A stretch of 61,719 nt of DNA, counting the filler, from Anaerolineae bacterium (lineage in GTDB: Bacteria > Chloroflexota > Anaerolineae > Epilineales > Epilineaceae), in the NCBI GenBank assembly GCA_029262755.1. It is 4 parts of 4 records of this genome, joined end to end, with 100 filler letters (N's around TTAATTAATTAA, not from the genome) between each part and the next. Parts side by side here need not be neighbours in the genome. Positions count along the whole stretch, not along the records: positions 1 to 18,319 come from JAJCYU010000116.1; 3 more parts are not named here. The stretch is one strand, 5' to 3'. The notes beneath the pieces were generated by a model. The model was not told the DNA's origin and did no database searches. It saw only the letters and a program-made list of their open reading frames with translations. Position 1 is the stretch's first letter; each line of letters opens with the position of its first letter. Positions 1-17,238 of this stretch are shown here, piece after piece. The position numbers were made by a program, and so were the translations under genes.

Positions 1-1
1 T

Positions 2-1585
2 CACGCCTTGGCCGAGAAGTGGCGCGAGCTGATCAACCTAGCGATCCGCGAGTTCCAAGGTCGCGCCGAGCTCGATCTCGAGATCCGGACCGACCACGTA
101 CGGATTCGGGATTCCGACACGACCGCCGTCCTGGTTTTCGAGGTGGTCAATAGCGGCGAGGGTCTGGCCTCCAACGTTCAACTCTCGATGGTCTCCGACG
201 AGGCGCCTGAGCTCAAGCTGCAGTCTGCGCCGACCCACTATCTGCCGCCGTTGGGGCAAGGTGACCGGCTGTCGGTAGAGTTCACCGTGCAACGGGAGGG
301 CGCCGGCGTGGTACCGATCACGCTCGAGCTGCGCTACGACGATCCCCAAACGGAAGGGCTGACACGCCGCTTCGCGCGCGAGGTGCGTTTCTTCATCGAG
401 GAAGCGGAGTACCAGGAAATCGGTACGTCGCCGTACATCGCCGGGCCGCCCGTCAAGAGCCGCGAGATGTTCTATGGTCGGCAGTCCACGTTCCTGTGGG
501 TGCAGGAAAATCTTTCCGGCACCTACCAGGCAAACGTGCTGGTCCTATACGGCGAGCGGCGAACCGGCAAGACGTCCGTGTTGTACCAGCTCCAATACCA
601 TCTGCCCGATCAATATGCCTTCGTGCTCATCGACCTCCAGTCGATCGCGTACGCGCTGAGCTCGACCTCGGATCTGCTGTTTGCCATGGCACGCAAGACG
701 ACGAGCGGTCTTCGGCGGCAGGGATTCGAACTCGAGAAGCCGCGAAGAGAAGATTACGCGGATCACCCGTTGGAGCAGTTCGAGCAGCTCGGCGAGGAGT
801 TGGGCAATCAGGCGATCGAGAGCGGCCGCCGTGCGGTGATCATCGCGGATGAATTCGATCTGCTCATCGAGGCGGTGGAGAACGACCAAGTCAGCGCCTA
901 TGTCTTCGACTGCATCCGGGGGCTCATGCAGCACCAAGAGGGACTGTCGTTCATCTTCGCCGGGGCCCATAAAGTCACCGAGATGTTGAAGAATCCTCAT
1001 TCGATCCTGTTCAATACGGCGCTTCGGAGACGGGTGAGCTACCTCGTGACGGAGGAAGCCGAGCGCTTGATCCGCGAGCCGGTCGCCGACGCGCTATGGT
1101 ACGACGACCTCGCGGTAGAGAAGATCCTGCGGGTTACGGCTGGACAGCCCTACTTCATCCAGTACATTTGCCACGAGATCGTGAATCTAGCCCGCAGCGA
1201 TCGCAAGAACTTCGTAACCCTGCGCGACGTCGACCGGGCGCTACAGACGACGGTCGAGGAAACCACGGGTATCATTCGCCACGCTTACATGTCGCTCGGC
1301 ATTAACGAGCGGCTGATTTTGGTCGCGTTGTCACGTATCACCGACGACGGTCGGCCCTTCGTTGGGATGGACGACATCCTCGAGACCCTCGGACAGGACG
1401 AGATTACCTTGGCCAAGCGAGACGCTCACGAACACATGCGCACCCTCACCGAACGTGACTTTGTGACCGAGCGCGGTTCGGAAGGCACGGAACGACAATA
1501 TGGCTTCACGATGGAGCTAGTACGGGTCTGGCTCGAGCGCAACGACGAATACACGCGCCTCCTTGAGGAGATCCGTCATGGTTGA
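2..1585 (+). CDS. STAND/AAA+ NTPase with N-terminal CARDB/Ig-like domain (5' truncated by window edge)
   Basis: Ig-like segment (VVNSGEGLASNV...LELRYDD), then SPYIAGPPV..FYGR, Walker A GERRTGKTS, Walker B IADEFD, GxP motif GQPYFIQ and a C-terminal winged helix; frame open to the window start. Confidence 0.85.
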   Translation, partial: HALAEKWRELINLAIREFQGRAELDLEIRTDHVRIRDSDTTAVLVFEVVNSGEGLASNVQLSMVSDEAPELKLQSAPTHYLPPLGQGDRLSVEFTVQREGAGVVPITLELRYDDPQTEGLTRRFAREVRFFIEEAEYQEIGTSPYIAGPPVKSREMFYGRQSTFLWVQENLSGTYQANVLVLYGERRTGKTSVLYQLQYHLPDQYAFVLIDLQSIAYALSSTSDLLFAMARKTTSGLRRQGFELEKPRREDYADHPLEQFEQLGEELGNQAIESGRRAVIIADEFDLLIEAVENDQVSAYVFDCIRGLMQHQEGLSFIFAGAHKVTEMLKNPHSILFNTALRRRVSYLVTEEAERLIREPVADALWYDDLAVEKILRVTAGQPYFIQYICHEIVNLARSDRKNFVTLRDVDRALQTTVEETTGIIRHAYMSLGINERLILVALSRITDDGRPFVGMDDILETLGQDEITLAKRDAHEHMRTLTERDFVTERGSEGTERQYGFTMELVRVWLERNDEYTRLLEEIRHG

Positions 1586-3056
1586 GAGCTCCACTCCCAG
1601 CCCCTTCGTTCTCGGCAAGCCCATTAAAGAGCCCGAGGACTTCCACGGTCGAGAGCACGCTCGGCGAGAGCTCTTCGAGTCCATCATGAACATGCAGCCC
1701 GTGGCGCTAGTGGGCGAGCACCGCTGCGGTAACACGTCCTTGCTCTATCAGATGATGCACGAGGATGTGCAGGCCGAGTTTATTGAAGCCGGCGCCCGCG
1801 ACGGGTTGCTCTTCGCGTTCTTGAACGCGCAATTGGCCGGAGATTCTCCGGAGTCGCTCTTTCGAAGACTTGCGCGCACGTTGAAGCGTGCCGATCCGGA
1901 TTCCAGCGCGGACTTCGAGGAAGATCCGATCGACGCATATTGGCTTGAGGATTACCTCGATGACCTCGCCGACCGTGACAAACGTCTCGTGCTACTGCTG
2001 GACGAGTTCGACGTTCTCGCCGAGTTTGAGCCCAAGTTCTGGGAGTGGTTCCGCGGCCTGATCACGGAGTACGACATGTCCATCGTCGTCGCTTCGCGTG
2101 TAGATCTGGGCGAGTTTGAGACCCAGTGGGGCACCGGATCGCCCTTCTTCAACATGTTTCGCTCAATCTATGTCGGTTCGTTCACGGCCGAAGAAGCGGC
2201 GGCGTTCCTCGATTTCGTGAGCGATCTGGGTGGGGTTGACCTGCGTCCTGTCGCGCCCGAAATCGCTCGCTTTGCCGGGCGCTTCCCTTACTACATGCAG
2301 GTCGCGGGATCGTTGTTCCACGAGCATGCCGTGCGCGGCGATGACCTGTTGGCCGAATCCACGATTGAAACGGTCGATCAGGAGTTTCGGGCGCGTACCG
2401 AAGCTCTCTTCAACGACGTTTGGGCACGCTTGCCTGCGGTGGAACGCGATGCACTCTGCTGGCTGGCCGTGGATGCCCAACCCGAGGGACGGGAGGGTGT
2501 TGCATTCGAGCAGGCCAGCCAACGGCTGTTTCGGCGGGGCTATGTGTATGACGATGCGATCTTCTCGACGGCCATGGCGGATTTCGCCCGCCGCCAGATG
2601 ACCCGCATCGAGCTCAACGCAGAAACAGGCGAGGTGCGCATTGAGAAGCGGCCGGTCGAGCTGCCTCCCAAAGAGTTCGCGCTGCTGCGTTTCCTGCTTA
2701 GCAAGCGGGGCGAGATCGTGACCAAGGACGAAATCGCGATCGCAGTCTGGCCGGAGTACTCGTTGGAGACGCTCGGCGTGACGGATGCCATGATCCAGAA
2801 GACGATCAGCCGCCTGCGCAAAGAGGTCGATGCGCACGGCTCGTCCTTCCAACATATCGAGAGCATTCGCGGTCAGGGCTACCGGTTCCGCAACGCGAAC
2901 ATCGCCACCGTGTACCAGGGTCGCGATGAATTCGACGACGAAGACGAGCTCGAAGGCGGGCATTCGGACGTCCAAGAGGATGCCGAAAGCATTGGTGGAG
3001 ACGGCGCGACGGCCCCCGTATCGACGCAAGGCAGCGAGGCCGCCGGCAACGATTGA
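1578..3056 (+). CDS. STAND NTPase (degenerate Walker A) fused to OmpR/PhoB-type wHTH DNA-binding domain, acidic tail
   Basis: GEHRCGNTS (Lys->Asn), LLDEFD; C-terminal LPPKEFALLRFL...ISRLRK...IESIRGQGYRF; ATG 1578 behind GAGGAG, overlapping the upstream stop. Confidence 0.85.
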   Translation: MVESSTPSPFVLGKPIKEPEDFHGREHARRELFESIMNMQPVALVGEHRCGNTSLLYQMMHEDVQAEFIEAGARDGLLFAFLNAQLAGDSPESLFRRLARTLKRADPDSSADFEEDPIDAYWLEDYLDDLADRDKRLVLLLDEFDVLAEFEPKFWEWFRGLITEYDMSIVVASRVDLGEFETQWGTGSPFFNMFRSIYVGSFTAEEAAAFLDFVSDLGGVDLRPVAPEIARFAGRFPYYMQVAGSLFHEHAVRGDDLLAESTIETVDQEFRARTEALFNDVWARLPAVERDALCWLAVDAQPEGREGVAFEQASQRLFRRGYVYDDAIFSTAMADFARRQMTRIELNAETGEVRIEKRPVELPPKEFALLRFLLSKRGEIVTKDEIAIAVWPEYSLETLGVTDAMIQKTISRLRKEVDAHGSSFQHIESIRGQGYRFRNANIATVYQGRDEFDDEDELEGGHSDVQEDAESIGGDGATAPVSTQGSEAAGND

Positions 3057-3100
3057 CGGATCCGATCGCGCCCGGCCATCGCGTTCCGACTGGCGGTTTC

Positions 3101-3182
3101 GTCAGCGAATCGTCCGTAGCGTCACACATCAGGCTGGTACGCGTCTGATATACTGACGATGCCATTGCTGACAACACTGACA
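3101..3182 (+). promoter_or_regulatory. Putative promoter (extended -10 TGnTATACT 3146-3154) flanked by GTCAG/CTGAC boxes
   Basis: GTCAG 3101, GTCAC 3121, ATCAG 3128; CTGAT 3145, CTGAC 3153, 3168, 3177. Confidence 0.45.
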
Positions 3183-3232
3183 GCGCGCGGTCGCCGGTCG
3201 GCGCCGCCCTTCGGCGCGCCGCCCCGGAAGGC

Positions 3233-5281
3233 GTGATGGAGACTCTGGCCAAGCGACCGATCAACCCGTATATCCTGACACCGCTCGTCGACGATGTCGG
3301 CTTCTTCGGTCGGGATTCCGTGCTGCGCTTTGTGCGCAATACGTTGGCGTCACCCTATCAGAATCTGGTCGTGCTTTTCGGCCAACGTCGTATCGGCAAG
3401 ACCAGCCTGCTCCACCAACTCCGGCGCGGCAGCAACGTGCCGGACGGTTTTCGCGCCGTGTACTTCGATTTGCAAGGACGTGCCGAACACCGGCTGGAGC
3501 AGGTGCTCTTCGGCCTGGCGCGAGAGATTGCGCGCGAGCTGGACCTCGAGGCACCGTCGCGGCGCGCCTTCGCGGAGGAGAGCTTCTTCCAGTATCACTT
3601 CTTGCCGCTCGTCTACGAGCGCATGGGCAGCGACCGGCTGCTCGTGCTCGTGGATGAATTCGACGTGCTGAGCGGTGAGGCTGTGGAAACACACGCCGCG
3701 TATCACTCTTTCTTCGCCTATCTCCAAGATCTGTTGATCGATGAGCAGCGAGGGCTTGCGTTCGTGTTCGTGGTGGGCCGGAGGCTCGACGAGCTACCGA
3801 GCCGCATCAAGGCCACGTTCAAGAGCGCCCAATGCAAGAGCATTTCCGTGCTGGACCGCCCCGCTGCGACGAGGCTAATCGTCGAGCCGGCCAGGGGAGA
3901 CGTTCGGTTCGCGGACGACGCGGTAGAGCGCTTGCTTGAACTGACAAGCGGTCACCCCTACTTTCTGCAGCTGCTCTGCTACGAGCTGTTCGATCGTGCG
4001 CTGCGTTCCGGACGCGACGAAGTGCGGTCCGAGCATGTCAGCGATGAGGTGCTTGAGGCCGTCATGGAGCTGGGCATGGGGGGTCTTGCCTGGTTCTGGG
4101 ACGAGTTCCCACCCGCGGAGCGATTCATTCTGTCGTCGCTCGCGCACCTTGCGCCCGAGGGCGAAGCCGCGACACTGCGCGAGATCGGTACGGCGCTGCG
4201 GGAACACGGAGTGCGGCTGCAAGGCATGGAGTTATCGTCCGCTCCGATGGTGCTTTCCGAATGGGGCATCATCCGGCCCGTGGGCAACGATGCGTTCGGC
4301 TTCCGGGTCGAGTTTTTGCGGCGATGGATCCTGGCGAAACACTCGCTCGAAGAGGCCAAACGGGAACTGGAACGGGTGAGCGCACGAGCCGTTCGCGATT
4401 ACGAGGCCGGACGAGGACACCACCACGAGGGCCGCCTCGACGACGCGCGCCTGCTGTACCTACGCGCGCTGGCGGCGAACCCCAATCATGCCCGCGCGCA
4501 GCTCGGTCTCGCGCAAGCGCATTACGAGAGCGGTGATATCGAAGCGGCTACCGATGCGTTTGAGAAAGCGTACCGCCTTGACCCCGAAAGCGCACGTGAT
4601 GGGCTCACGGCCGCCCACCGCGATAGCGGCGTCGCCCATGAAGCTGAGGGACGCTACGACCAGGCGCGTCCCCACTACCAGCGCGTGCTTGATATCGTCC
4701 CCGATGACATCGGAGGCCGCCATCGGTTGCGTGACAGCTGGCGCGCGACGGCCGGTGCTCACCTCGCGTCGGGTCGGTGGGAGCAAGCGGCCGAAGCGTA
4801 CCGCGAGGCGTTGCGCTACGTACCGGACGACATGGTCATCCAACGAGCCGTCGTCGACCTCGAGCAACGCCACCTCGAGAGCGAGACGTTGCGTCAGCGG
4901 CGCTTGCAGCTCGAGCGCGCCGTGCTCGAGACGCGCCTGCGCGAGGAACAAGGGAGGCGACGGCGGTTGGAAGAGACGGCCGCAGACGCCCTGCCCACCT
5001 TCCTGGCGATCGCCGCTATCTCGGCTACGGGAGTAGCAGTTGGGCTGGCGATGGTCGGCGGCATGTTGAATTCGCCCTGGGTGCCGCTGGGCGTCGGCGC
5101 CTATCTCGTGGCCATTTCAGGAGCGTTCGTCTGGACCCGGAGCCGGCTCTCGCGCGCTGCGGGAATCGAGCACGCGCCACCACAGCTGGAGTCGAACCGC
5201 GCCGCGGTCGGCATCGACACGGCCGGATCCAGTACCGATACCGAACGAATTCATCGAGCGTCGAGGGGACGAATCTTGTGA
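3233..5281 (+). CDS. STAND NTPase with TPR repeats, coiled coil and two C-terminal TM helices
   Basis: NPYILTPLV..FFGR, GQRRIGKTS, LVDEFD, GHPYFLQ; TPRs (ALAANPNHARAQLGLAQAHY, AYRLDPE); hydrophobic FLAIAAISATGVAVGLAMV and VPLGVGAYLVAISGAFVW. Confidence 0.85.
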   Translation: MMETLAKRPINPYILTPLVDDVGFFGRDSVLRFVRNTLASPYQNLVVLFGQRRIGKTSLLHQLRRGSNVPDGFRAVYFDLQGRAEHRLEQVLFGLAREIARELDLEAPSRRAFAEESFFQYHFLPLVYERMGSDRLLVLVDEFDVLSGEAVETHAAYHSFFAYLQDLLIDEQRGLAFVFVVGRRLDELPSRIKATFKSAQCKSISVLDRPAATRLIVEPARGDVRFADDAVERLLELTSGHPYFLQLLCYELFDRALRSGRDEVRSEHVSDEVLEAVMELGMGGLAWFWDEFPPAERFILSSLAHLAPEGEAATLREIGTALREHGVRLQGMELSSAPMVLSEWGIIRPVGNDAFGFRVEFLRRWILAKHSLEEAKRELERVSARAVRDYEAGRGHHHEGRLDDARLLYLRALAANPNHARAQLGLAQAHYESGDIEAATDAFEKAYRLDPESARDGLTAAHRDSGVAHEAEGRYDQARPHYQRVLDIVPDDIGGRHRLRDSWRATAGAHLASGRWEQAAEAYREALRYVPDDMVIQRAVVDLEQRHLESETLRQRRLQLERAVLETRLREEQGRRRRLEETAADALPTFLAIAAISATGVAVGLAMVGGMLNSPWVPLGVGAYLVAISGAFVWTRSRLSRAAGIEHAPPQLESNRAAVGIDTAGSSTDTERIHRASRGRIL

Positions 5282-6558
5282 TGCCATCGCGATCCGACTT
5301 GAACCCGCCCACCCTTTCTGAAAGCGAGTTGGCGTTTACACCCCACTCGCCGGCGCCACCCGAGCTGTTTACGGGCCGGGAACGCGAGCTGGATCTAATC
5401 TTCGGGCATATTCGGCCCGCACAGCGTGGCAACGTCGCGGTCAGCGGTCCCGTCGGCATCGGCAAGACCAGCCTCTTGCGCATGATTGCCGATCAGGAAG
5501 TCGGCGCCCGATACGGCGTAGTGGCTCCTGGCCACATCGTGCTCCACGTGGACGTTCAGGCGATCTCGCCTTTCTCACACGGAGCCTTTTGGCGTCGCGT
5601 CGCACGCCTATTGCGGCGCGCCGCCGGGCGACCGGGAGCACCTATCGATCGCGATACGGCCGACACGATCACGCAGGTCATCGTGGAGCCCGAAACACCG
5701 GACCTGATGGACGTCGAGGAGTTTCTTGACGCCCTGACCGACCGAGATACGGCGCTCATCCTGCTCTTGGATGAGTTCGAGTGGGCCTTACATGCCGAGG
5801 CGCCAAAGGAAGCCGAGGCGTGCCGTCATTTCTTAGCCCAATTGGCATCCCTTGCTCGTCGCGGGCCACGCACCCTGGCTCTCGTGGTCGCAACGGACCG
5901 ACCTCTACCGGATGCGCTCAACGCCGTCGAAGCCTGGCGTGGTTCCCCGTTTTCGACGATCTTCACCTCGATTCGGCTCAAGCCCCTCTCGCGTGATGAG
6001 GCCGGCGGCCTCATCGCCCGAGCGATCGACGGCCACTATCCAGCCCGATCGTCGGATCACGAGCTGTTGTGGTCGGTCAGCGAAGGGCAGCCGCTCGTCT
6101 TGCAGTCGGCCTGTGCAGCCCTGCTCGCAGCGCGGCGACAAGGCGCCGACGATAGTGTCGTCATCGGAGCCGTTCGCGAAGCCGCCGCGCGCGCCCACGC
6201 ATCGCTGCCCCAGCGACGCGCGAATGAGATGGCCACGCCCGAAGCGCAGCGCGTGCCGGAGAACGGTTTGTGGATCGACGAGGAGAGCGGCACCGTGATC
6301 GTCGATGGCCGACGGGAAGAGAGTTTGACGGCCCTCGAGTACAGCCTTCTGCGGATGCTGTACGACCATCCAGGTCGGCTGTGCAGCAAACAGGACATCA
6401 TCCGACATGTTTGGGGCGAGGAGGCCGCGAGCGATGTGGATGACGCCCGTGTCGAGAAGTTGATCAGCCGCTTGCGACAAAAAGTCGAGTCCGCGCCTGG
6501 CCGGCCCCGCTATATCCGCACGGTTAGAAGTCGCGGTTATCGCTTCGTGGATCGCTGA
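5281..6558 (+). CDS. STAND NTPase fused to OmpR/PhoB-type wHTH
   Basis: TGATG coupling to upstream gene; LFTGR, GPVGIGKTS, LLDEFE, GQPLVLQ; LTALEYSLLRML...ISRLRQK...IRTVRSRGYRF. Confidence 0.85.
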   Translation: MPSRSDLNPPTLSESELAFTPHSPAPPELFTGRERELDLIFGHIRPAQRGNVAVSGPVGIGKTSLLRMIADQEVGARYGVVAPGHIVLHVDVQAISPFSHGAFWRRVARLLRRAAGRPGAPIDRDTADTITQVIVEPETPDLMDVEEFLDALTDRDTALILLLDEFEWALHAEAPKEAEACRHFLAQLASLARRGPRTLALVVATDRPLPDALNAVEAWRGSPFSTIFTSIRLKPLSRDEAGGLIARAIDGHYPARSSDHELLWSVSEGQPLVLQSACAALLAARRQGADDSVVIGAVREAAARAHASLPQRRANEMATPEAQRVPENGLWIDEESGTVIVDGRREESLTALEYSLLRMLYDHPGRLCSKQDIIRHVWGEEAASDVDDARVEKLISRLRQKVESAPGRPRYIRTVRSRGYRFVDR

Positions 6559-6586
6559 GCACAACCACGTAGATCAAGCGGCCGTT

Positions 6587-6616
6587 TTGCCCGCGTCCCG
6601 CGCAGCGGCATACAAT
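6587..6616 (+). promoter_or_regulatory. sigma70-like promoter TTGCCC-18-TACAAT
   Basis: -35 at 6587-6592, -10 at 6611-6616. Confidence 0.5.
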
Positions 6617-6622
6617 GCGGGA

Positions 6623-6706
6623 GCCTGGGCGCTGCGGATACCGGCGCACCGTAAGCCCGTGGCACGTACACGAGGGGGGGCGAATCGCCCCCCCTCGTGT
6701 CTTTTT
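6623..6706 (+). ncRNA. Candidate small RNA (~85 nt) with its own promoter and terminator
   Basis: Promoter upstream; 5' hairpin GCC/GGGC/TGCGG..CCGTA/GCCC/GGC; intrinsic terminator; no downstream + strand gene. Confidence 0.4.
6668..6706 (+). terminator. Rho-independent terminator
   Basis: Perfect 15-bp stem ACACGAGGGGGGGCG-AAT-CGCCCCCCCTCGTGT followed by CTTTTT. Confidence 0.85.
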
Positions 6707-6811
6707 CCTCGTCCGGCGCTGCACCGCTGGGCATGCAACATCGACGCACGCGGCGGATCAACCGGGACGATTGCGGCCGGAGCAGGTGTGAGCGCAGGGC
6801 CCGTCCAACGG

Positions 6812-8059
6812 CTACATTCGGTCGACGACCGCCTGGGCAAAGCCGCTGCAAGACACCTCGGTCGCGTTATCCATCTGGCGCGCAAGATCGTAGGTCACGA
6901 CACCGTCCGCGACCGCGGCTTCAATACCGTTGCGCACGAGGGTGGCGGCATCGTCCCAGCCCAGATACTCAAGCATCATCACGCCGGAGAGGGTGAGCGC
7001 CATGGGATTGACCTTGTCTTGGCCGGCGTATTTGGGCGCCGTTCCGTGCACGGCCTCGAATACCGCGACCTCATCGCCGATGTTCGCGCCGTGGGCTACG
7101 CCGAGACCTCCGACCTGAGCGGCCGCGGCGTCGGATAGATAGTCGCCGTTGAGGTTCGGTAGAGCCAGGACGTCATAGTCGGCCGTCCGCGTAAGCAGCT
7201 GCTGCAACATGTTGTCGGCGATCCGGTCCTTGATGACGATCGCGTCGTTGGGAGCGACGCCTCCGTGGTCCTTCCACAGAGCCTCCTCGCTTACCGTGGT
7301 ATCCGCGAACTCGTCGCGGGCGAGCTCGTAGCCCCAATCGCGGAACGCACCCTCCGTATACTTCATGATGTTGCCCTTGTGCACCAGCGTTACGCTCTTG
7401 CGGCCGCGCGCTTGTGCGTACTCGATCGCGCTGCGCATGAGGCGCTTGGTCTTCATCTCGCTGATCGGCTTGATGCCGACACCGGTACCGGACACGTCCA
7501 GCGTGTCGACCCCCATTTCGTCCCGTAGGAAGCGCAACACCTTTTCCGCGTCTTGGCTGCCCGCCTGCCACTCGATGCCGGCATAGACGTCTTCGGTCGC
7601 CTCCCGGAAGAGCACGATATCCATGTGCTCCGGATGGCGAACGGGGCTCGGCAATCCGGAGATCCAGTAGACGGGCCGCACATTGGTGTAGAGATCGAGT
7701 CGCTGCCGGATGGCCACGTTGAGGCTGCGGATCCCACCGCCGACCGGCGTGGTCAGCGGCCCCTTGATGCCGACACGATAGTAGGTGAACGCTTCGAGCG
7801 TCTCAGCGGGGAGCCATTCGCCGCGCTTGTCCATAGCACGCTCACCGGCGAACACCTCCACCCACGCGATCGATCGGCTGCCGTCGTAGGCCTTGGTGAC
7901 CGCTGCGTCGACCATGGTTCGCATCGCCGGGGTAACGTCCGTGCCGATGCCGTCACCGAGGATGTAAGGAATGAAAGGCCGATCGGGCACGATGCGCGTA
8001 CCGTCGACGAGACCGATGCGTTGTCCGTCGGAAGGAATGCTCAGGTCGGGGAAGGGCAT
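6812..8059 (-). CDS. icd: NADP-dependent isocitrate dehydrogenase
   Basis: [58 protein letters not shown]. Confidence 0.97.
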
Positions 8060-8091
8060 GCAGGAAGCTCCTGAGGGGGGCGCAGCGAAGC

Positions 8092-9690
8092 TCAGCCGCC
8101 GGGGGCGGCCGCGAGCACCTTGGGATCCACGCCGTCGGCGTACTGTTCGAAATTCGCGCAGAACATGGCTGCGAGAGCGGCGGCCTTCTCATCGTAGGCC
8201 GCCCCGTCCTTCCAGGTAGCCCGCGGGTCCAACACGCGCGATTCCACGTCGGGAACCATGTCCGGGACGTGCACCCCGAACACGGGATGAGGCGTCGTCG
8301 GTACGGCATCGAGCGCGCCGCTGAGCACGGCGCGAACCATAGCGCGGGTGTCCGCGAGCGAAAGCCGCTCGCCGACGCCGTACTCGCCGCCCGTCCAGCC
8401 TGTGTTGAGCAGCCACACGGACACCCCGTGTTCGTCCATCCGGCGTCCGAGCATGTCGGCATACCGCCCAGGATGTCGGGGCAGGAAGGGGGCACCGAAG
8501 CACGCGCTGAACGTTGCCGTCGGCTCCTTGACGCCTCGCTCTGTGCCGGCGACTTTGGCCGTATATCCGGAGATGAAGTGATACATGGCCTGTTCCCGGC
8601 TCAATCGACTCACCGGAGGCAGGACGCCAAAGGCATCCGCGGTGAGGAAGATGACCGTGCGCGGATGACCGGCCATGCCGCCGGGGACGATCGTGTCGAG
8701 ATGATCGATCGGATACGAGGATCGCGTGTTTTCGGTCAAGCTTGCGTCGTCGAAGTCCGGATGGCGCGTCGCGTCGAGCACGACGTTCTCCAAGATCGTG
8801 CCGAAGCGCGTCGAAGCGCGGAAGATCTCCGGCTCTGAACTCGACGTGATCCGGATGGTCTTGGCGTAGCAACCGCCTTCGAAGTTGAACACGCCTCGCG
8901 GGCTCCATCCATGCTCGTCATCGCCGATCAACGGGCGATCGGGATCGGCGGAGAGCGTCGTCTTGCCCGTGCCCGATAGGCCGAAGAAGAGGGCCACGTC
9001 GCCTGTCGATCCCACATTCGCCGAGCAGTGCATCGGCAGAACGTCCAATGGAGGTAAGCGATAATTCATGACCGAGAACATGGACTTCTTGATCTCGCCC
9101 GCATAGGCCGTGCCGCCGATAATGACCTCACGCGCCGCGAAGTTGAGCACGATGAACGTTTCCCCGTGCGTGCCGTCGTTGGCCGGATCCGCTTGCGCTG
9201 TCGGCGCGTGAAGCACCGTCCATTCAGGATCGAAACGGGCCAGCTCCGGCGCATCGGGGCGCAGGAACATGTTATTGGCGAACAAGTTGTGCCAAGCAGT
9301 GCTGCTGACAACGCGCAGGCCGATCCGGTACGCCGGATCAGCGCCGCACCAGGCATCCCGCACGTACACGTCGCCTTCGCTGAGCGCGCCGGTGACTTTG
9401 GCTCGCAACGCATCCCAGCTCGCAGGCTCCAAGGGCACGTTAACCGCACCCCACCAGATGTCGGCCTCGCTCGACGGTTCTCGGACGATGTAGCGGTCGT
9501 TGGGCGAACGGCCCGTGTGCGCCCCGGTCTCAGCGACGAAGGAGCCGTCCGCGGTAAGCGTGCCCTCTCCGCGACGGACGGCGTGCTCCACCAGCTCGGA
9601 GGCGGCTAGGTTCCACCAGGCGTCGCCGCTTAGGGCGATGCCGAGCGGCTCGATCGCAAAGCGCGAAGGCCGTTCCACGGCGTGGATCAT
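8092..9690 (-). CDS. pckA: Phosphoenolpyruvate carboxykinase (ATP)
   Basis: [50 protein letters not shown] 9690 behind GGGAGG. Confidence 0.97.
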
Positions 9691-9849
9691 GGGTCCCGTT
9701 CCTCCCATACCGGCAGAACCCGCCGCGCGCGCGCGACGGGCGTAGCGTTTCTGGCAACAACCGCGATAGGATACCACACGGTCTAAGGGCCCTCGAAGGA
9801 TTTCTAGGACGCTGAATTGCCGGCCTACCACCCCCTGCCAGGAGTCCGT

Positions 9850-10407
9850 ATGCGTGATCGAATGAGCTCAGCATCAGCGCGCGAAGTGTCGGAAACGCTG
9901 TCCTTGCAACATAACGAGACGTCGATCGCGATTGCCACCGAGCTCTTGCGGACTCTCTCGGAGCGAGGCTGGACCTGCGCCACGGCGGAGAGTTGCACAG
10001 GTGGTCTGATCGGCGCGACGATGACGGCGATTCCGGGAAGCTCCGGTGCCTATCGAGGCGGAGTCGTCGCGTATGCCAACGCTGCCAAGGTGCAGCTTCT
10101 CGGCGTCCCTCCAGCATTCCTGGACGCCCACGGAGCGGTGTCCGCGGCCGTCGCTCGCGCGATGGCGCTAGGCGTACGAGATCGGCTCGACGCAGACGTT
10201 GCCGTCGCGGTCACGGGCATTGCGGGCCCCGGCGGAGGCGGGCCCGGCAAGCCGGTCGGTCTCGTGTGGCTCAGTTGTGCCACGGCCGAGCGCAGCCGCG
10301 TCGCACGCCACGTCTTCCCAGGTGATCGCGCAGCGGTTCGACGCGCCGCAACGGACGCGGCACTCGCCATGGCGCTGGCAACGGTCGGGGATACCGTGAT
10401 CCGCTAG
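9850..10407 (+). CDS. pncC: CinA C-terminal domain / nicotinamide mononucleotide deamidase
   Basis: ATAESCTGGLI, GAVS, VTGIAGPGGG..KPVGLV, GDR..VR. Confidence 0.9.
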   Translation: MRDRMSSASAREVSETLSLQHNETSIAIATELLRTLSERGWTCATAESCTGGLIGATMTAIPGSSGAYRGGVVAYANAAKVQLLGVPPAFLDAHGAVSAAVARAMALGVRDRLDADVAVAVTGIAGPGGGGPGKPVGLVWLSCATAERSRVARHVFPGDRAAVRRAATDAALAMALATVGDTVIR

Positions 10408-10509
10408 AAGCGCGTCCTAGAACCTCGGATACCGGGAGAAGCGCCTATCTGACGAAAGCCGAAACCAGACCCGAAAACCAGACCCAGAGTACGCTCCGGC
10501 TTTCCCACT

Positions 10510-12327
10510 CTACGCTGCGCTCATCACGGATACGAACGCATCACGATCGAGAGTCTCGACCTCGAGCAATGTGCGCGCTACGTCGTGCAGCCGGTCGATG
10601 TTGTCGGTGATCAAGCGCCGGGCCAGCGTGTGCGCCTCCGTCACGACTCGTCGCACCTCATGATCGATCTGACGCGCCGTCGCCTCGGAGTAGTTTCGCT
10701 GCTCGGAGAGTTCGCGGCCGAGGAAAACCAGCTCTTGACGTTGGCCGAGCGAGATAGGTCCAATCGTCTCGCTCATCCCATAGCGGGTGACCATGTCACG
10801 GGCCGTACGAGTGACAAACTCAAGATCGCCGGATGCGCCTGTTGAGATATCGCCGAAGACCAACTCTTCTGCTGCGCGACCGCCCAGAGCCGCGGCCAGA
10901 TCCGCTTCGAACTTCGAGCGACTACGTAGATAGGTGTCCTCTGCCGGGAGCGCGCTGGTCAGGCCGGCGGCCATACCGCGCGGGATGATCGTGACTTTGT
11001 GGACGGGGTCGCAGTCATCGAGCATGTGCATCACGACCGCATGTCCGGCTTCGTGGTACGCGGTAACCTTCAACTCTTCCGGCTCCACGACCCGGCTGCG
11101 TCGTTCCGGCCCATATCGCACCTTGTCGACAGCCTCTTGAAGATCGGGCCCTGTCACAAGCTTCGCATTGCGCCGCGCGGCCATGATGGCGGCCTCGTTT
11201 ACGAGGTTCTCAAGATCCGCACCACTGAAGCCCGGCGTCTGGCGCGCAACCGTGTCCAGGTCGACGTCCGGAGCGAGCGGCTTGCCGCGGGAGTGAATCC
11301 CGAGGATTGCCCGTCGTCCACCGCGGTCGGGGCGATCGATGATCACGCGTCGATCGAAGCGACCGGGCCGCATCAACGCAGGATCGAGAATGTCCGGTCG
11401 GTTCGTGGCGGCGATAATGATCACGTTCGTGTCCGTATCAAAGCCATCCATTTCGACCAGAATTTGATTCAATGTCTGCTCGCGCTCGTCATGGCTGCCG
11501 CCGAGACCCGCCCCACGTTGGCGGCCGACAGCATCGATCTCGTCAATGAAAACGATGCACGGGCTGTGCTTGCGCGCCTGGTCAAACAGGTCGCGCACGC
11601 GACTCGCTCCGACCCCGACGAACATCTCGACGAATTCGGAGCCGGAAATCGAGAAGAAGGGCACGCCCGCTTCCCCTGCGACCGCGCGGGCCATCAACGT
11701 CTTGCCACAGCCCGGGGGCCCCATCATCAGCACACCGCGCGGTATCTTCGCCCCTAGCGCGATGAACTTCTCCGGCTCACGCAGGAACTCGACGACTTCC
11801 GCCAGCTCCTGTTTGGCTTCCTCAACCCCCGCGACATCCTCAAACGTCACGGTTGGGGTGTCACCGGTCATCATGCGGGCGCGGCTGCGGCCGAAGGACA
11901 AAGCCTGGTTGTTGCCCGACTGCGCCTGGCGCATCAAGAACACGAGGATGCCGAGCATGAGTAGAAACGGCACCAGGGTCGTAAGCAGGGTGCCCAACCC
12001 GGCGAATCCGTTAGGCTTGTCCACGGCAAAGACCACGTCGGACTCGCGCAACGCGGCGTAGTCCAACCCCAATTGCTCGATGAACGGCTCGCCGAGCCGC
12101 TCCTTGAGCACTATGCGCCGGCTGCCGTCCGCAAGCTCGATCATCGCGCGCGACTCGTCGCCCGCGATGTTGATCCGCTCTACGTCACCGGCATTGACCC
12201 GGTCGACGAGCTCGCTTTGGCTCATCTGAAGCCGCGCGCCTCGGTCCGCCTGGTAGGCGAGCAACGCGGCGCTCATGCCGATCAGGACTACACCCCAAAT
12301 CAACCAATTTCGTCTCGAAGAGCGCAT
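10510..12327 (-). CDS. ftsH: ATP-dependent zinc metalloprotease FtsH
   Basis: Two TM helices, [45 protein letters not shown]. Confidence 0.97.
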
Positions 12328-12596
12328 GGGCTCGTCAACACCTTCGCGGTGGCTCGACGCAAGGAAACGCGTCGTTGCGATCCGGCTCAGCCAAGCGGCC
12401 GAACCCAAGGAAACGCAAAGATAGCATAGGGATCGTCGGAGTCGTGTGCGGCCGAAGGAGGGGGGGCGAAGGCCGCACGCTCAGGCGAGTCGGCGTACCA
12501 CCGCCGGCGCATCGATGGTCGCAGCCGCCTTCGCGTAGAGCGCGTCAATCAAGAAGAGGCAGCTACCGAGGGCGCCTATCGTTGTTTGGTAAGCCC

Positions 12597-14597
12597 TTAG
12601 GGCGCGACGACCGTGATGGGTCGAATCTGTACGCCTCGATCGCCCAGCTTCACCATGGGCGCCGTCTCGACTTGCAGACGCAAGTCGGGTGCGTCCGCGG
12701 GAAAGAGCTCAATCCACAGATGATAGGTGTCCGGGGGCACGTCCGCTGGGATGCCAAGCTCGAAGGTCGCCCCGGTAATGCTCTCGCCTTCGGTCCACGC
12801 CGAGGTCGGTCGTCCGTCGACCGGAGCACGCGCCGCCTCCGCGAAGACGACGCCCGCTCCACCGTTGAACGCCCGCCAATCCCCCACCACCATGCGCGCC
12901 TCGTAATCACGCGAGATCGGCTTGATGGCGGACCACAACGGAATCGCCTGCACGATCTGGCCGGCGGCAAGCGTATCCGTAACGAGTTGGACGCCTTCTA
13001 AGAACACACCGTCCTCGAAAGTCTCGCCGAGCGGAAGCCAGCCACCGCTGTCCACGTTGTAGATGATCTTGCTGCCGACAGGCTGCGCCGTTTCGGGAAG
13101 CGGGTCGAGCCCGATGACCTGGCCTTGCGTCGGGCTGGCTGCCCCGCGCCATATGTCACGTCGCTGTGGGATGAATCCCAGCTGGTTGAGCGCGATCGCC
13201 ATGGCGGCCGGATCGAGTTGGACGGCCGGAACGGAGATGGGGGCCTGCGCGGCGAACCGCACGCCGACCGGGGAGCCTTCCAACACCAACGTTCCCGGTT
13301 CCGGTCGTTGATCGACGACCCTTCCGACCTCGGCGCCCTGGCGCACCACCGGCTCTTCGGACGCGGAGAGGTTGATCGAATCGAGCAAATCGCGCGCCGC
13401 CTCAACGCGCATGCCACGCACGTCCGGCACCTCGACCTCCGTGAACGGCGTGGGTGTCGGCGGCACGACCGGAGCGACGGGAACGTCGCGCGGGGCGCGC
13501 GACGAGGCGTCCGCAGGATCGATGATCGCGGGCAGCCCACCCTGCAAGCGCCCAACGGCGGCCATCCAGACGAGGATAAGCCCCGCCATGGCCACCACAG
13601 CCACCACACCCAGGCCAAGTCCGCGCCAATCCAGCCGCGGCGCGCGGCCGCTCCGTGCGGGGGAATCCGCTCGCCGTCCGAAACGCGAGCCTCTGCCATT
13701 GCCGCCGGCCTGTGGAAGCATCGCGGTCACCTGCCCCGCGTCCGTCCGATAGGCCGTCAGCAGGGCAGCCAGTGCGTTTGCGTCGGGCACCCGGTTCTCC
13801 GGCTCACGCGCCATCGTGCGTTCCAGCAAAGCGGCGAGCGGCCCGGGCACCTGCGGGTTCAACTCCATGACGGGCGTCGCCGTCTCGTTCATGACCTTCA
13901 TCGCAACGGCCAGACTGGAGTCCCCCACATGCGGCACGCGGCCGGTCAGCATCTCGTAGAGCACGACACCGAGGCTGTAGACGTCCGACGCAGGCGTGGC
14001 AGGCGCCCCTGCCGCCTGCTCCGGCGCGATGTAGTGAACGGTTCCCATGACAAGGCCGGGAGCGGTGAGACCGGCTGCAGAGATCGCACGCGCAATCCCG
14101 AAATCGGCCACCTTCATGCGACCGTCCGGACCCACGAGCACGTTCTGCGGTTTGATGTCGCGGTGGACCATGCCGGCGTCGTGCGCGGCGCTGACGGCGT
14201 CCGCCAATGCCAGCGCGATCTCGACGGATCGTTCGGGGGAGAGCGGCGCTTCGTCCCGGATCAGCGCTTTCAGATCGCGGCCCGGCACATATTCCATCAC
14301 CAGATAGTGACGACCGTCTGCCTCTCCAACGTCGTGTACGCCGACGACGCCCGGATGGCTGAGGGCAGCAGCGCTGCGGGCCTCTGTGCGGAACCGTTCG
14401 AGAAATTCCGGATCGGCCGCGTACTGTTCTCGCAGCACTTTGACAGCCACGGCGCGATGCAGGAGGGTGTCCTCCGCACGCCAAACAACCGCCATGCCGC
14501 CCTCTCCGACTACGTCGAGGAGGCGATAGCGCTCGTTGAGCAGGTGCGCCCCTTGCGCACCGGCATCGCCGGCGGGGGGTGGATCGGGCTGCGGCAT
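12597..14597 (-). CDS. PknB-like Ser/Thr kinase with TM, two PASTA domains and an extra C-terminal Ig-like domain
   Basis: GEGGMA, VAVK, HRDIKPQN, DFGIA, GTVHYIAPEQ; TM; VPDVRGM PASTA. Confidence 0.92.
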   Translation of the reverse strand: MPQPDPPPAGDAGAQGAHLLNERYRLLDVVGEGGMAVVWRAEDTLLHRAVAVKVLREQYAADPEFLERFRTEARSAAALSHPGVVGVHDVGEADGRHYLVMEYVPGRDLKALIRDEAPLSPERSVEIALALADAVSAAHDAGMVHRDIKPQNVLVGPDGRMKVADFGIARAISAAGLTAPGLVMGTVHYIAPEQAAGAPATPASDVYSLGVVLYEMLTGRVPHVGDSSLAVAMKVMNETATPVMELNPQVPGPLAALLERTMAREPENRVPDANALAALLTAYRTDAGQVTAMLPQAGGNGRGSRFGRRADSPARSGRAPRLDWRGLGLGVVAVVAMAGLILVWMAAVGRLQGGLPAIIDPADASSRAPRDVPVAPVVPPTPTPFTEVEVPDVRGMRVEAARDLLDSINLSASEEPVVRQGAEVGRVVDQRPEPGTLVLEGSPVGVRFAAQAPISVPAVQLDPAAMAIALNQLGFIPQRRDIWRGAASPTQGQVIGLDPLPETAQPVGSKIIYNVDSGGWLPLGETFEDGVFLEGVQLVTDTLAAGQIVQAIPLWSAIKPISRDYEARMVVGDWRAFNGGAGVVFAEAARAPVDGRPTSAWTEGESITGATFELGIPADVPPDTYHLWIELFPADAPDLRLQVETAPMVKLGDRGVQIRPITVVAP

Positions 14598-14680
14598 GGC
14601 GGCGATTGTAGCGGAGCCCAGGGGTCGCGTGAAGCCCGAAACGCGTGACCTTTGGTCAGCCCGACGCTATCATCGCGGCC

Positions 14681-15883
14681 ATGTCTTCTCCGCCCCTGCG
14701 CCGTCCTCGAGCCCGCGTCATCGCCAACCCGGCTTCGGGTGGGTCACGCGATCATGCTGCGTCCGTGCGCGCGGCCGTCGGCGTATTGGCGGAGCGGGGA
14801 TGGACGATCGAATGGCATAACACGCAAGCGGCGGGAGAAGCAGAGGCGCTCGCCGCGGAATCCGCGCAGCGGGGCGATGACGTCGTCGTCGTGGCGGGCG
14901 GCGATGGCACGATTCACGAGGCCATGAACGGGCTCGTCGGCTCGCGCACAGCGTTGGCAGTATTGCCGGCGGGAACGGCTAATGTCTTAGCGGCACAGCT
15001 CGGACTCGTTGGGGTGCCCACTCCGCTACATCGGGCGAACCTGCCCGCTGTAGCGGAAGAACTCGCTCGGGGAGCACCGCGCCCGGTGGACGTCGGGTGG
15101 GCCTTGCCAAGGGGCGGCACCATACGCCACTTCCTCCTGTGGGCGGGCGTCGGTCTCGACGCCTCGATCGCACGCGAGATCGAGACCGAAGCGCGGGATC
15201 TGAAACGCCTGCTCGGGCCGGCGGCTTTCGGCGCGGTCGGGCTGCGGCAGACGGCGCGCGGAGACGGCGGGTCGGAAGCCATCGTCCGCTGGGACAACCA
15301 CAAAGTACGCGATCGGCTGCTGCTGGCCGTGATCGCCAACATCCCGCTCTACGGCGGTGCCTTGCGGATTGCTCCGGAAGCCCAATTGGATGATGGGCGC
15401 CTGAACGTCGCCTTGTTTCGCGGCAGCAACCTACTCACCGCCGTCCAGAGTTATTTGGGCGGGGACGTGCGCTCCGTTATGCAGCATATTACTGCGCTGC
15501 TTGGCGGCCGGGCTGAAGACTCACGGCCGATCACGGAATCCGCGGCAAACGTGCGCATCGTATCGCGCCGCCCACTGCCCGTGCACCTGGACGGGGAGCC
15601 GTTTTGTGAGACACCGGTATCGATCGGTGTGCTCGAGCGGGCATTATTGCTGTGGGTGCCGCCGACAGCGCCTGCGGGCTTATTCCTAGACGATTCGCGC
15701 ACCGTAAATCAGCAAGAGGAGCCCCATGGGGATGGGTCCGGCGAACGAAGCGCTTCGATGCGCGTTCGTGGCGGAGCCGAGGCTACTCGCGAGATTATTC
15801 TCCGGCCAGCCCGTGGCGATCGGCCGCCGTGGCGCGGTCTTTCGGGCATGGCCTTGGCGTATCGAGCGCTTCGCCGGCCGTGA
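14681..15883 (+). CDS. Diacylglycerol kinase family lipid kinase
   Basis: IANPASG, AGGDGTIHE, LPAGTANV, LDDG, HLDGE. Confidence 0.9.
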   Translation: MSSPPLRRPRARVIANPASGGSRDHAASVRAAVGVLAERGWTIEWHNTQAAGEAEALAAESAQRGDDVVVVAGGDGTIHEAMNGLVGSRTALAVLPAGTANVLAAQLGLVGVPTPLHRANLPAVAEELARGAPRPVDVGWALPRGGTIRHFLLWAGVGLDASIAREIETEARDLKRLLGPAAFGAVGLRQTARGDGGSEAIVRWDNHKVRDRLLLAVIANIPLYGGALRIAPEAQLDDGRLNVALFRGSNLLTAVQSYLGGDVRSVMQHITALLGGRAEDSRPITESAANVRIVSRRPLPVHLDGEPFCETPVSIGVLERALLLWVPPTAPAGLFLDDSRTVNQQEEPHGDGSGERSASMRVRGGAEATREIILRPARGDRPPWRGLSGMALAYRALRRP

Positions 15884-16944
15884 AGGTTCTCTATGTGTTG
15901 TTGCTGGCGGCCCCCTTCGCTTTAGCATCGCACGCCTTCGGCGGCAGTCCCTTGATGACATTCGTGCTCGGTATGGTCGCGCTCGCCCCCCTTTCCGAGT
16001 TGCTCGGCGACATCGGCGAAGACCTGGCGGTGCATGCCGGCCCCCGATTTGGTGGCCTTGTCGCCACCATGAGCGGCAACACGCCGGAGATGCTACTTGC
16101 CGTGTTGGCGCTCAACGCCGGCCTATTGCAGCTGGTCAAGGCCAGCATCACCGGCACGATCCTGGCTAACCTCCTGCTCGTGCTTGGAATCAGCTTGTTC
16201 GTAGGCGGCCTGCGCAACGGACGCCAGTACTTCAACCGCGAGCAAGCCTCGATGTCGGCCACGCTCATGGTGCTGTCGGTCATCGCGCTCATCGTGCCGG
16301 CCCTGCACTGGGCGCTCGTACCCGATGCCGCGTCGATCGTGCGCAATGCAGGCACGGTTGAGACGCTCTCCGAGGCCGTAGCCGGCACGATGCTCGCGGT
16401 CTATGCCTTGAGCGTTTATTTCAGCCTCTACTGGGACCGGCAGAGTCAGATCGTGGCCCGCGTCCACCATCTTCGGGCGCGCTGGCCGCTAGGCAAGGCC
16501 CTTCTCCTGTTCGGGTTGGCCGTCATCGCCTTCGTGGCCGTCGGCCGGACCTTTGTAGCGACCGTGCCGCTCGTGACGGAGAGCAGCGGAATCGGACAGT
16601 ACTTCATCGGGATCGTGATCGTTCCCCTTGTGAGCTCGCTGCCTTCGCACCTGGTTGCGGTCGAGAACGCCTTTCACAATCGAGCGGATATGAGCCTCTC
16701 CGTCGCGATGGACGCCAGCATCCACATGGCGTTGTTCGTGGGCCCATCGCTCGTGTTCGTCTCTCTGCTCATCGGCCGGCCCATGGACCTGATCTTCAGC
16801 CAACTCGACCTCGTAGGATTGGCTGCGGCCAGCGGTGTCGCCACCTTGGTCGCACACGACGGCCTCGGCAACTGGCTCGAAGGAGCGATGCTGATCGCGG
16901 TATACGCGATCCTCGCGCTCGCCTTTTTCTGGGTTCCGCTCTAA
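15880..16944 (+). CDS. Ca2+/H+ antiporter (CaCA/CAX family), second signature degenerate
   Basis: GTGA overlap; SGNTPE, KASITGTILANLLLVLG, DGLGNWLEGAML; multiple TM helices. Confidence 0.85.
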   Translation: MKVLYVLLLAAPFALASHAFGGSPLMTFVLGMVALAPLSELLGDIGEDLAVHAGPRFGGLVATMSGNTPEMLLAVLALNAGLLQLVKASITGTILANLLLVLGISLFVGGLRNGRQYFNREQASMSATLMVLSVIALIVPALHWALVPDAASIVRNAGTVETLSEAVAGTMLAVYALSVYFSLYWDRQSQIVARVHHLRARWPLGKALLLFGLAVIAFVAVGRTFVATVPLVTESSGIGQYFIGIVIVPLVSSLPSHLVAVENAFHNRADMSLSVAMDASIHMALFVGPSLVFVSLLIGRPMDLIFSQLDLVGLAAASGVATLVAHDGLGNWLEGAMLIAVYAILALAFFWVPL

Positions 16945-17019
16945 GGCATCGTCGCGAACTTGGTCCCGGTCGAGGGTCGGGTCTATCATCCCACGCTTGC
17001 AACCGGCCAGGAGGACTGC

Positions 17020-17238
17020 ATGCTCGCGGACTACTTCAAAATCGCCTTGATCGTCGTAGGTGGCGTACTGATCGCCTTGATCATGCTGCAGGTGCGTGGC
17101 GGCGGATTCGGCGATATGTTCAGTGGGGACTCACTCTACCGAACGCGGAGGGGTGTGGAAAAGACGATGTTCAACATGACGGTCGTCTTCGCCACGATGT
17201 TCTTGCTGTTCTCGCTGCTTTCGGTGCTGTACAGCTAG
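17020..17238 (+). CDS. secG: Preprotein translocase subunit SecG
   Basis: 72 aa, two TM, LQVRGGGFG..YRTRRGVEK; GGAGG RBS. Confidence 0.92.
   Translation: MLADYFKIALIVVGGVLIALIMLQVRGGGFGDMFSGDSLYRTRRGVEKTMFNMTVVFATMFLLFSLLSVLYS

Follow-up and report, generated by a model that had tools for sequence, protein, structure and literature searches.

Paired sensor-type and output-type STAND ATPase genes with OmpR-like winged helices in an Anaerolineae bacterium

Four homologous STAND ATPase genes at one locus

We analyzed a stretch of 61,719 nucleotides (the window) from the Anaerolineae bacterium assembly GCA_029262755.1 and found that positions 2-6558, on the plus strand, hold four consecutive homologous ORC/Cdc6-like STAND ATPase genes, here called g1 to g4 (Table 1). 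Judged by sequence comparison, the locus looks like two paralogous pairs of a sensor gene and an output gene, g1 with g2 and g3 with g4, in which each output protein ends in an OmpR/PhoB-type winged helix. The members of each pair stay together in related genomes, and each pair may act as a two-gene signalling module that needs no phosphorelay. The source genome is a draft of 428 contigs (84% complete), and the window is a chain of its separate contigs, with joins at, for example, positions 1 and 18420; contig C116 starts at window position 1.

A sequence-only reading of this DNA had proposed four consecutive STAND-class NTPases, with genes 1 and 3 each overlapping the gene behind it, and both points are borne out. 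g2 and g4 pass Pfam STAND models, and we count g1 and g3 as STAND proteins because they are homologous to g2 and g4. At the g1/g2 junction, ATGGTTGA at 1578-1585 contains both the g2 start and the g1 stop, giving an 8-nt overlap, while at the g3/g4 junction TGATG at 5279-5283 contains the g3 stop and the g4 start, giving a 1-nt overlap. The g2–g3 spacer measures 176 nt in the window. At four related loci (L032, L033, L034 and L037) only 1-3 nt separate the g2 stop from the g3 start, and there all four genes look like one operon from their spacing. One further relative carries an AT-richer insertion of ~1.3 kb between g2 and g3 (L036:11336-12633), where other relatives have 2-180 nt. No Rfam family matched window positions 1-18419 at gathering scores.

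Table 1. Features of the four-gene locus and of its divergent neighbour. Positions are those of the window unless a locus handle is given.
Feature	Position	Strand	Remarks
g1	2..1585	+	5' open; C-terminal 527 aa of a ~1590-aa NACHT–HEAT–β-sandwich–STAND protein
g1 β-sandwich ('Ig-like') domain	71..397	+	fragment residues 24-132; AF2 model
g1 second ATPase module	428..1540	+	residues 143-513; P-loop GERRTGKTS, Walker B DEFD, lid, winged helix
g2	1578..3056	+	nSTAND2 ATPase module, then OmpR/PhoB winged helix
g2 non-canonical P-loop GEHRCGNTS	1713..1739	+	Walker A Lys to Asn
g2 Trans_reg_C winged helix	2649..2888	+	residues 358-437; Pfam 62.2 bits
Candidate operator GTCAG-N6-GTCCG-N4-GTCA	3101..3124	+	g2–g3 spacer; aligned with the triple repeats of L030, L031 and L050
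TATACT, possible -10 of an internal g3-g4 promoter	3148..3153	+	by eye; inference only
g3	3233..5281	+	ATPase module (GQRRIGKTS), TPR repeats, coiled coil, two-segment membrane anchor
g3 hydrophobic hairpin, two predicted membrane segments	5000..5137	+	Kyte-Doolittle scan
g4	5281..6558	+	ATPase module with canonical Walker A and B, then OmpR/PhoB winged helix
g4 Trans_reg_C winged helix	6316..6546	+	residues 346-422; Pfam 76.2 bits
Terminator-like hairpin and T run	6668..6700	+	15 pairs; 110 nt past g4
Divergent Tad-like cluster	L050:40-4896; L084 (G000:C37):3033-4043	-	faced by GTCAG repeats

g1 and g3 combine a STAND module with repeats

The missing N-terminal 1055 aa of g1 lie in the same genome at C37:4515-7681, reaching the end of contig C37, and comparison with an ortholog indicates that ~8 residues are lost between the C37 and C116 parts. 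The C37 part carries a Walker A motif (GPTGIGKS, at residue 102) and HEAT repeats. Its orthologs, 1575-1650 aa long, likewise begin with an N-terminal NACHT-type module, which scores with the NACHT model, followed by HEAT repeats and then by the module seen in the window. A conventional kinase/REC (receiver domain) relay had been envisaged as a possible content of the truncated upstream part, and what we found there on C37 is NACHT and HEAT instead.

Within the window, the g1 fragment passes the Pfam AAA_22 cut-off of 27 with 39.3 bits, with ATPase_2 and nSTAND1 (21.7 vs 27.1) staying under theirs. An AlphaFold 2 (AF2) model of the fragment, built from a 28-row alignment with a predicted local distance difference test (pLDDT) of 88.5, has β strands only at residues 24-132, followed by an ATPase with its lid and a winged helix. 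The Ig-like domain named in the sequence-only reading is therefore retained as an all-β stretch, but the small sensor described there is not, since the fragment is the last third of a ~1590-aa protein. Modules of this β-sandwich-plus-ATPase kind are common at the C-terminus of large proteins, and a search of a 50%-clustered library with the g1 C-terminal module gave 7631 matches at E ≤ 0.001, of which 968 reach E ≤ 1e-30.

g3 passes AAA_22 just over the cut-off (28.3 vs 27) and matches many TPR families, with no match to a STAND model. The TPR repeats, coiled coil and two transmembrane segments ascribed to it earlier fit these data, the TPR repeats by Pfam and the two segments by a Kyte-Doolittle scan, which places them at residues 589-607 and 616-634 of the 681-aa form. 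The same scan finds at least one hydrophobic segment in 119 of the 120 listed members of the g3 family. In long relatives of g3 (~1040 aa), a BNR/Sortilin-type propeller comes after a single membrane segment, a predicted layout that makes them transmembrane receptors.

g2 and g4 join a STAND module to an OmpR/PhoB winged helix

g2 matches nSTAND2 (48.7 vs 24) and Trans_reg_C (62.2 vs 26.2), and g4 matches AAA_16 (56.1 vs 32.6), nSTAND1 (29.7 vs 27.1) and Trans_reg_C (76.2 vs 26.2). Neither protein has a Pfam match to Response_reg (REC), and NCBIfam response-regulator models align with the C-terminal DNA-binding part only, far under their cut-offs. Pfam likewise returned no BTAD match in g2 or g4, in both of which the winged helix is C-terminal. 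In the AF2 model of g2 (pLDDT 85.4), an ATPase, a lid and a winged helix precede the OmpR-type domain, on which the PhoP DNA-binding domain superposes with a template modelling (TM) score of 0.84 at 31% identity. Pfam and the g2 fold thus agree with the earlier view that a STAND domain stands in the receiver's place before an OmpR/PhoB winged helix-turn-helix. Sensor repeats are absent from g2 and g4 by Pfam, and their neighbours g1 and g3 have repeats and no output domain.

The P-loop of g2, GEHRCGNTS, is unchanged in all 21 aligned members (34-76% identity), which retain Walker B, and it recurs in all 8 rows of the g2 group in the tree described below. The canonical Walker A lysine, absent from g2, is present in the g1 C-terminal part, g3 and g4; in g4, Lys62 and a DE pair are retained in 21 of 21 aligned members. 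Invariant arginines, which may include an arginine finger, are present in the aligned partners. At E ≤ 0.001, g2 has relatives in 127 clusters and g4 in 111, many of them apparently on shared contigs, and in other relatives of the g2/g4 module the winged helix is replaced by a Ser/Thr kinase or a class 3 adenylate cyclase. A repeat scan of positions 1-7000 gave short, chance-like pairs, except for DNA common to the g2 and g4 recognition helices, whose coding sequences are 78% identical (repeat family D1). At its C-terminus (window 2929-3056), g2 has an acidic tail at residues 452-492 with pLDDT below 50; most orthologs end at ~447-460 without such a tail.

The four ATPase modules are homologous

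The g1 C-terminal part aligns with g3 at 30% identity over 377 aa (E 4e-38) and with g2 at 25% over 257 aa (E 1e-10). The match between g2 and g4 covers the ATPase as well as the winged helix, and that of g3 to g4 is weak (E 3e-4). The P-loops of the g1 C-terminal part and g3 share the form GxRRxGKTS. A quick maximum-likelihood tree of 42 trimmed modules, with branch support from the Shimodaira–Hasegawa-like approximate likelihood ratio test (SH-aLRT) only, groups the sensor-type modules (the g1 C-terminal part with g3) in one clade with support of 100, gives the g2 clade a support of 88 and places g4 with a STAND–kinase protein (support 86). One row of this tree (P0359), cut at the wrong P-loop, has a very long branch, and another (P0228), with no Walker A match, was left out. 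The proposed split of STAND modules into a sensor type and an output type on separate genes is real.

The order of ATPase core, helical lid and winged helix that is the hallmark of STAND proteins is seen in the AF2 models of both g2 and the g1 C-terminal part. The solved folds nearest to the two models are 2qen (PAB2304), 2fna (SSO1545) and Orc1/Cdc6, with plant NRC/ZAR1 next; both models match NRC3/NRC4 and that of g2 also ZAR1, at query-normalised TM scores (TMq) of 0.35-0.47.

The pairing is conserved but not obligatory

We surveyed the pairing in two overlapping sets. A contig survey recovered 25 loci, 13 with g2 orthologs of at least 58% identity and 12 with paralogs of 43-56%, and an order-level sample comprised 35 genomes, our own included, with the families f1, f83 and f84. 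Since the genomes of the order sample overlap the loci of the contig survey and are kin, the counts below do not represent independent events.

In the contig survey, a g1 ortholog (72-77% identity) lies directly before g2 in 12 of 12 loci with upstream DNA. Downstream of g2, 8 loci have g3 and g4 and a ninth has their start; one locus is cut, and in three (L026, L027 and L035) g3 and g4 are absent from the 10 kb downstream of g2. By tblastn, g1 and g2 are adjacent in all 13 f1 genomes with a g1 ortholog, at gaps of 5-55 nt, and in f84 a g1-like and a g2-like gene are adjacent at 38-40% and 30-32% identity in G423, in G421 and twice in G424. Of 18 genomes with a g3 ortholog, 17 have g4 next to g3, and in the eighteenth a contig end interrupts the locus; this count takes in 4 f83 genomes, which have no g2 orthologs. 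The two pairs can also be separated, as in G413 and G414, where they lie on different contigs.

The four genes are spread unevenly over the families. Full-length g4 is present in 15/16 f1 genomes (the sixteenth, G405, has a partial copy at a contig end) and 5/6 f83 genomes, and in f84 as the winged-helix region only; g3 is found in 13/16, 5/6 and 0/10 genomes of f1, f83 and f84, respectively, and g2 in 16/16, 0/6 and 4/10 (the last at 30-32% identity). For the g1 C-terminal part the counts are 13/16, 2/6 (distant) and 5/10 (38-40% identity). Across the phylum, the g1 C-terminal module has matches in 21 of 301 sampled genomes. The idea that every giant protein with a g1-like C-terminal part has a STAND-output partner was considered and rejected on the phylum-sample loci.

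A related arrangement occurs on a metagenome contig (L086:656-11818), where a g3-like gene of 1052 aa, an nSTAND2–kinase–TIR gene of 824 aa, a second g3-like gene of 1048 aa and an nSTAND2 gene of 276 aa follow one another as their counterparts do in the window, giving two tandem pairs alike in design. Judging from such domain layouts, output domains are exchangeable. The 276-aa output gene of this contig encodes an ATPase module only and is followed by a 258-aa open reading frame (ORF) with no family match. Altogether, the neighbourhood comparison that had been suggested for this locus finds the pairing conserved, and comparative genomics makes functional coupling of each pair well supported; the same gene counts indicate that the pairing is conserved but not obligatory.

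GTCAG repeats form a candidate operator

Alignment of the g2–g3 spacers revealed a common block of direct repeats. Three exact GTCAG units with an 11-nt period precede g3 in L030, L031 and L050, and in the window TATACT lies 24 nt past the corresponding repeat at 3101-3124. A consensus sigma-70 scan of positions 2900-3300 found no full site; read by eye and by alignment with relatives, TATACT marks a possible internal promoter for g3-g4. In G413, G414 and G404, where g3-g4 lies apart from g1-g2, three exact units stand ~100-180 nt before g3 in the same orientation, and three exact units likewise lie upstream of the lone g4 of G407 and G408.

All 11 loci with the region upstream of g1, our own genome among them (C37:4264-4279), carry there a two-unit form, GTCAG-N6-GTCAG, in every case on the strand opposite to g1, as do 2 of 2 f84 loci examined. 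Spacers differ between loci and the GTCAG pentamers are constant. The 12 g2-paralog loci (189,284 nt) contain 0 exact sites. In our own genome, the three-unit form occurs in 5 windows at 4 places, as against 0, 1 and 0 in shuffles.

In f83, which has g3-g4 only, we found CTGACAAGTCTGACA before g3 in three of four loci (L116, L117, L118 and L122), with one mismatch in the fourth. This element repeats the reverse complement of the GTCAG pentamer at a 9-nt period, instead of the 11 nt of f1, and belongs to a strongly conserved promoter-like block of CTGACAAGTCTGACA, TTTGcC, ~17 nt and TGTGATAGTAT; by eye, the repeats abut a -35/-10-like pair.

The usual binding sites of OmpR/PhoB proteins are direct repeats in tandem, spaced by about one turn of the helix. 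We regard the GTCAG repeats as a candidate operator for the winged helices of g2 and g4, and their tandem form would suit an array of winged helices held by an ATPase oligomer.

The places in our own genome with at least three near-perfect units are C387:2410-2447, C388:589-615, C388:3105-3131 and C389:294-320. The genes beside the three-unit places encode a VWA protein, an SGL protein, a C39-like peptidase and unknowns, with no clear theme. A large VWA protein is also encoded next to the lone g4 of G407 (L083).

Genomic context argues for a regulatory role

No histidine kinase or REC domain is found in the main ORFs of C116 or C37, and no histidine kinase in those of the orthologous flanks, in line with the earlier observation that neither is in view. 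A divergent five-gene cluster lies upstream of g1 in 9 of 10 related loci. It encodes a TadA/CpaF-type ATPase (Pfam T2SSE, E 2e-19; NCBIfam TadA, E 3e-38 and under its cut-off) and has faint CpaB- and CpaE-like matches. From its position facing the repeats, this Tad-like pilus or secretion cluster is a candidate target of GTCAG regulation. Downstream of the four genes lie those for isocitrate dehydrogenase (icd), PEP carboxykinase (pckA), CinA, FtsH and a PASTA kinase. The last, a PknB-like Ser/Thr kinase with a PASTA domain on the minus strand (12597-14597), is 6 kb downstream, and nothing ties it to the cluster.

Defence had been listed among the possible outputs, and the locus could be read as a two-gene nSTAND2 system for conflict or phage defence that senses an invader and answers with a transcriptional response. 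Passages of PMC8195603 predict that nSTAND2 two-gene operons are counter-invader systems. In addition, one relative carries a TIR domain, and PADLOC (PADLOC-DB 2.0) gave weak partial matches only, the best being g3 to PDC-S27 (E 5.6e-6) and g4 to mad8 (E 4.3e-5). We consider a defence role very unlikely. All 16 other genomes of the family contain g2 and g4, while g4 occurs in only 3 of 401 genomes sampled across the phylum, all three of family f1; the upstream flank is kept in 9 of 10 loci; the downstream neighbours are housekeeping genes; the outputs are DNA-binding domains and not toxic; and no mobile-element genes were seen around the locus. Genome comparison indicates that the cluster is inherited vertically within one Anaerolineae-type order. 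Because mobile-element genes are lacking and presence in the family is near-universal, we favor a regulatory system specific to this lineage over a defence island that moves between genomes; vertical inheritance and context both disfavor the defence output.

A predicted g1–g2 complex and a proposed mechanism

We modelled g1 residues 130-527 (28-row alignment) together with g2 residues 1-445 (21 rows). The g1 C-terminal part–g2 complex scored 0.50, 0.50 and 0.47, and the best of 3 controls scored 0.00; at least 90% of contacts agree between runs, and the pLDDT of the partner is at least 82. Of 157 solved complexes, 116 attain the pass mark, as do 2 of 215 mismatched pairs; passing scores of at most 0.60 came from just 18 of the solved complexes and from both of the passing mismatches. 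An interaction is thus predicted, if weakly, and the model lends weak support to binding between the g1 C-terminal part and g2. We count it as modest support because the conserved, overlapping gene pairs provide a strong prior. The idea of STAND–STAND hetero-oligomerisation gains from the retained pairing and from this fold; the oligomer itself is the part that we only infer, together with the signals and the DNA that each protein binds.

We propose, at a probability of about one half, that the locus encodes two paralogous two-gene signalling modules in which a sensor STAND ATPase drives an output STAND ATPase with a winged helix. The sensor would be either g1, a cytoplasmic protein, or g3, which would be anchored in the membrane. 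A signal at the sensor would make the ATPase modules of sensor and output protein associate in a nucleotide-dependent manner, and this association would gather several winged helices head to tail. The gathered winged helices would then bind tandem GTCAG repeats one helical turn apart, where the repeats before g3-g4 would provide self-regulation and those between g1 and the Tad-like cluster would serve a divergent target.

Several findings weigh against this proposal. The P-loop of g4 is intact, so the pattern of an eroded partner suits the first pair only, and the weak pass of the complex model may mirror solved Orc1/Cdc6 and ORC assemblies that resemble these modules. No repeat lies before g3 in L029 and L036, and the exact two-unit motif is not enriched in our own genome (10 observed vs 13.7 shuffled). 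In genus g223 (G407 and G408, 95% and 87% complete), g4 stands alone between unrelated genes, and a search for g3 at E 1e-40 gave no match in either genome. The g2 paralogs of 43-56% identity keep the Lys-to-Asn P-loop with no STAND neighbour in 12 of 12 loci, whose flanks encode unrelated enzymes. Finally, a second STAND gene lies within ~1.5 kb in only 4 of 24 distant loci of the phylum with genes like g3 or the g1 C-terminal part.

Such lone g4 and g2-paralog genes, and the scarcity of a tandem second STAND gene at distant loci, would be expected if there were no complex at all and g2 and g4 were self-contained one-component regulators, with g1 and g3 as their targets or as unrelated operon neighbours; the GTCAG repeats before g1 and g3 also look like those of target genes. 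We assign this reading a low probability. Each regulator lies behind a sensor gene with overlapping stop and start codons, adjacency persists down to 30-40% identity, and the order of genes is seen again on a contig with a kinase–TIR output. Moreover, a self-contained regulator fits poorly with a division in which g2 and g4 have no sensor repeats and their neighbours have repeats and no output domain.

It is also unlikely, in our view, that g1 and g3 act by sequestration, holding g2 and g4 inactive (g3 at the membrane), much as an anti-sigma factor holds its sigma, until a signal frees them to self-associate on DNA. Binding within each pair would persist in this arrangement, with its effect turned from activating to inhibitory. 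The conserved pairing and the weak support from the fold fit this arrangement equally. The hydrophobic segments of g3 and nearly all its listed relatives would provide the anchor, to which the long forms add an extracytoplasmic BNR/Sortilin propeller; g4, with intact Walker motifs and alone in G407 and G408, presumably acts by itself; and MalT, according to passages of PMC10427625, is held by inhibitory proteins such as MalY. On the other hand, the invariant Lys-to-Asn P-loop of g2 speaks against autonomous nucleotide-driven self-assembly, and the sensors own homologous ATPase modules, which are needless for a simple anchor.

Returning to sensors that drive their output partners, it is possible, if somewhat doubtful, that such pairs form a general and hitherto undescribed phosphorelay-free class, in which a cytoplasmic or transmembrane sensor STAND nucleates its cognate output STAND, outputs are exchangeable and the two pairs at our locus converge on GTCAG to control the Tad-like cluster and themselves. 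The exchangeable outputs of that class would be an OmpR winged helix, a Ser/Thr kinase with or without TIR, and an adenylate cyclase. If true, this would make the pairs a bacterial counterpart of NAIP–NLRC4 or of sensor/helper NLR pairs, serving ordinary gene regulation.

Comparison with known systems

The closest published precedent lies in the nSTAND2 operons of PMC8195603 (Kaur, Iyer, Burroughs, Aravind, eLife 2021). Passages of that paper describe operons in which both genes carry the same STAND module, one of them with eroded NTP motifs and fused to a variable effector (GT4 or HEPN); they predict a toroidal hetero-multimer and describe the systems as mobile and counter-invader. By these passages, a two-gene STAND system with an eroded, effector-bearing partner is already published, and the idea presented here is partly known. 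Our locus shares the adjacent homologous STAND genes and the eroded output-bearing partner, in the Lys-to-Asn change of g2. As far as those passages go, it differs in having an OmpR winged helix instead of GT4 or HEPN as output, in vertical as opposed to mobile inheritance and in its sensor, which for g1 is a giant NACHT–HEAT protein; only g2 passes the nSTAND2 cut-off, and the g3-g4 pair has two intact P-loops. A search of the supplements of PMC8195603 for OmpR, wHTH (winged helix-turn-helix) and Trans_reg_C returned no occurrence, and the passages of PMC7159879 and bioRxiv 10.64898/2026.01.04.697583 do not describe such a STAND–OmpR architecture. Our literature search found no account of an N-terminal STAND module with a C-terminal OmpR winged helix, or of its pairing, although preprint supplements might hold such architectures.

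Among transcription factors, passages on MalT, AfsR/SARP, GutR and IniR describe the same coupling of a nucleotide-switched ATPase to a DNA-binding domain, and those on AfsR also an OmpR-type winged helix with TPR repeats. MalT, AfsR and IniR are single chains in these accounts, whereas here the sensor repeats lie in a separate protein. The winged helix of AfsR is N-terminal and accompanied by BTAD, and MalT uses a LuxR-type helix-turn-helix. g2 and g4 differ from the SARP/AfsR type in that their winged helix is C-terminal, BTAD gives no match and the TPR repeats belong to a separate protein, g3. To our knowledge, the characterised bacterial STAND transcription factors (MalT, AfsR and GutR) carry sensing, switching and DNA binding all in one chain. 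With OmpR/PhoB response regulators, g2 and g4 share the C-terminal Trans_reg_C domain, but unlike OmpR/PhoB two-component systems they have no REC domain and no histidine kinase nearby. PAB2304 (2qen), SSO1545 (2fna) and Orc1/Cdc6 have the same succession of ATPase, lid and winged helix, with a target-normalised TM of up to 0.71 (to the g1 C-terminal part), but are only 11-18% identical and have neither an OmpR domain nor sensor repeats; we know of no archaeal ATPase_2 or Orc1/Cdc6 protein that acts as a paired regulator.

Animal and plant immune receptors are known for a division of labour between sensor and helper. NAIP–NLRC4, paired plant NLRs and the NRC network are alike in concept to the pairs described here, in that sensing falls to one STAND protein and the output to a related one. 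They differ in that the output here is a transcription factor and not a pore or protease platform, and there is no membership at the level of sequence. The partner genes, the candidate operator and the candidate targets are all defined, and the source organisms are uncultured Chloroflexota. If our proposal is true, the pairs would offer a route to OmpR-type promoter activation without phosphorylation, and sensor/helper logic would be older and broader than immunity.

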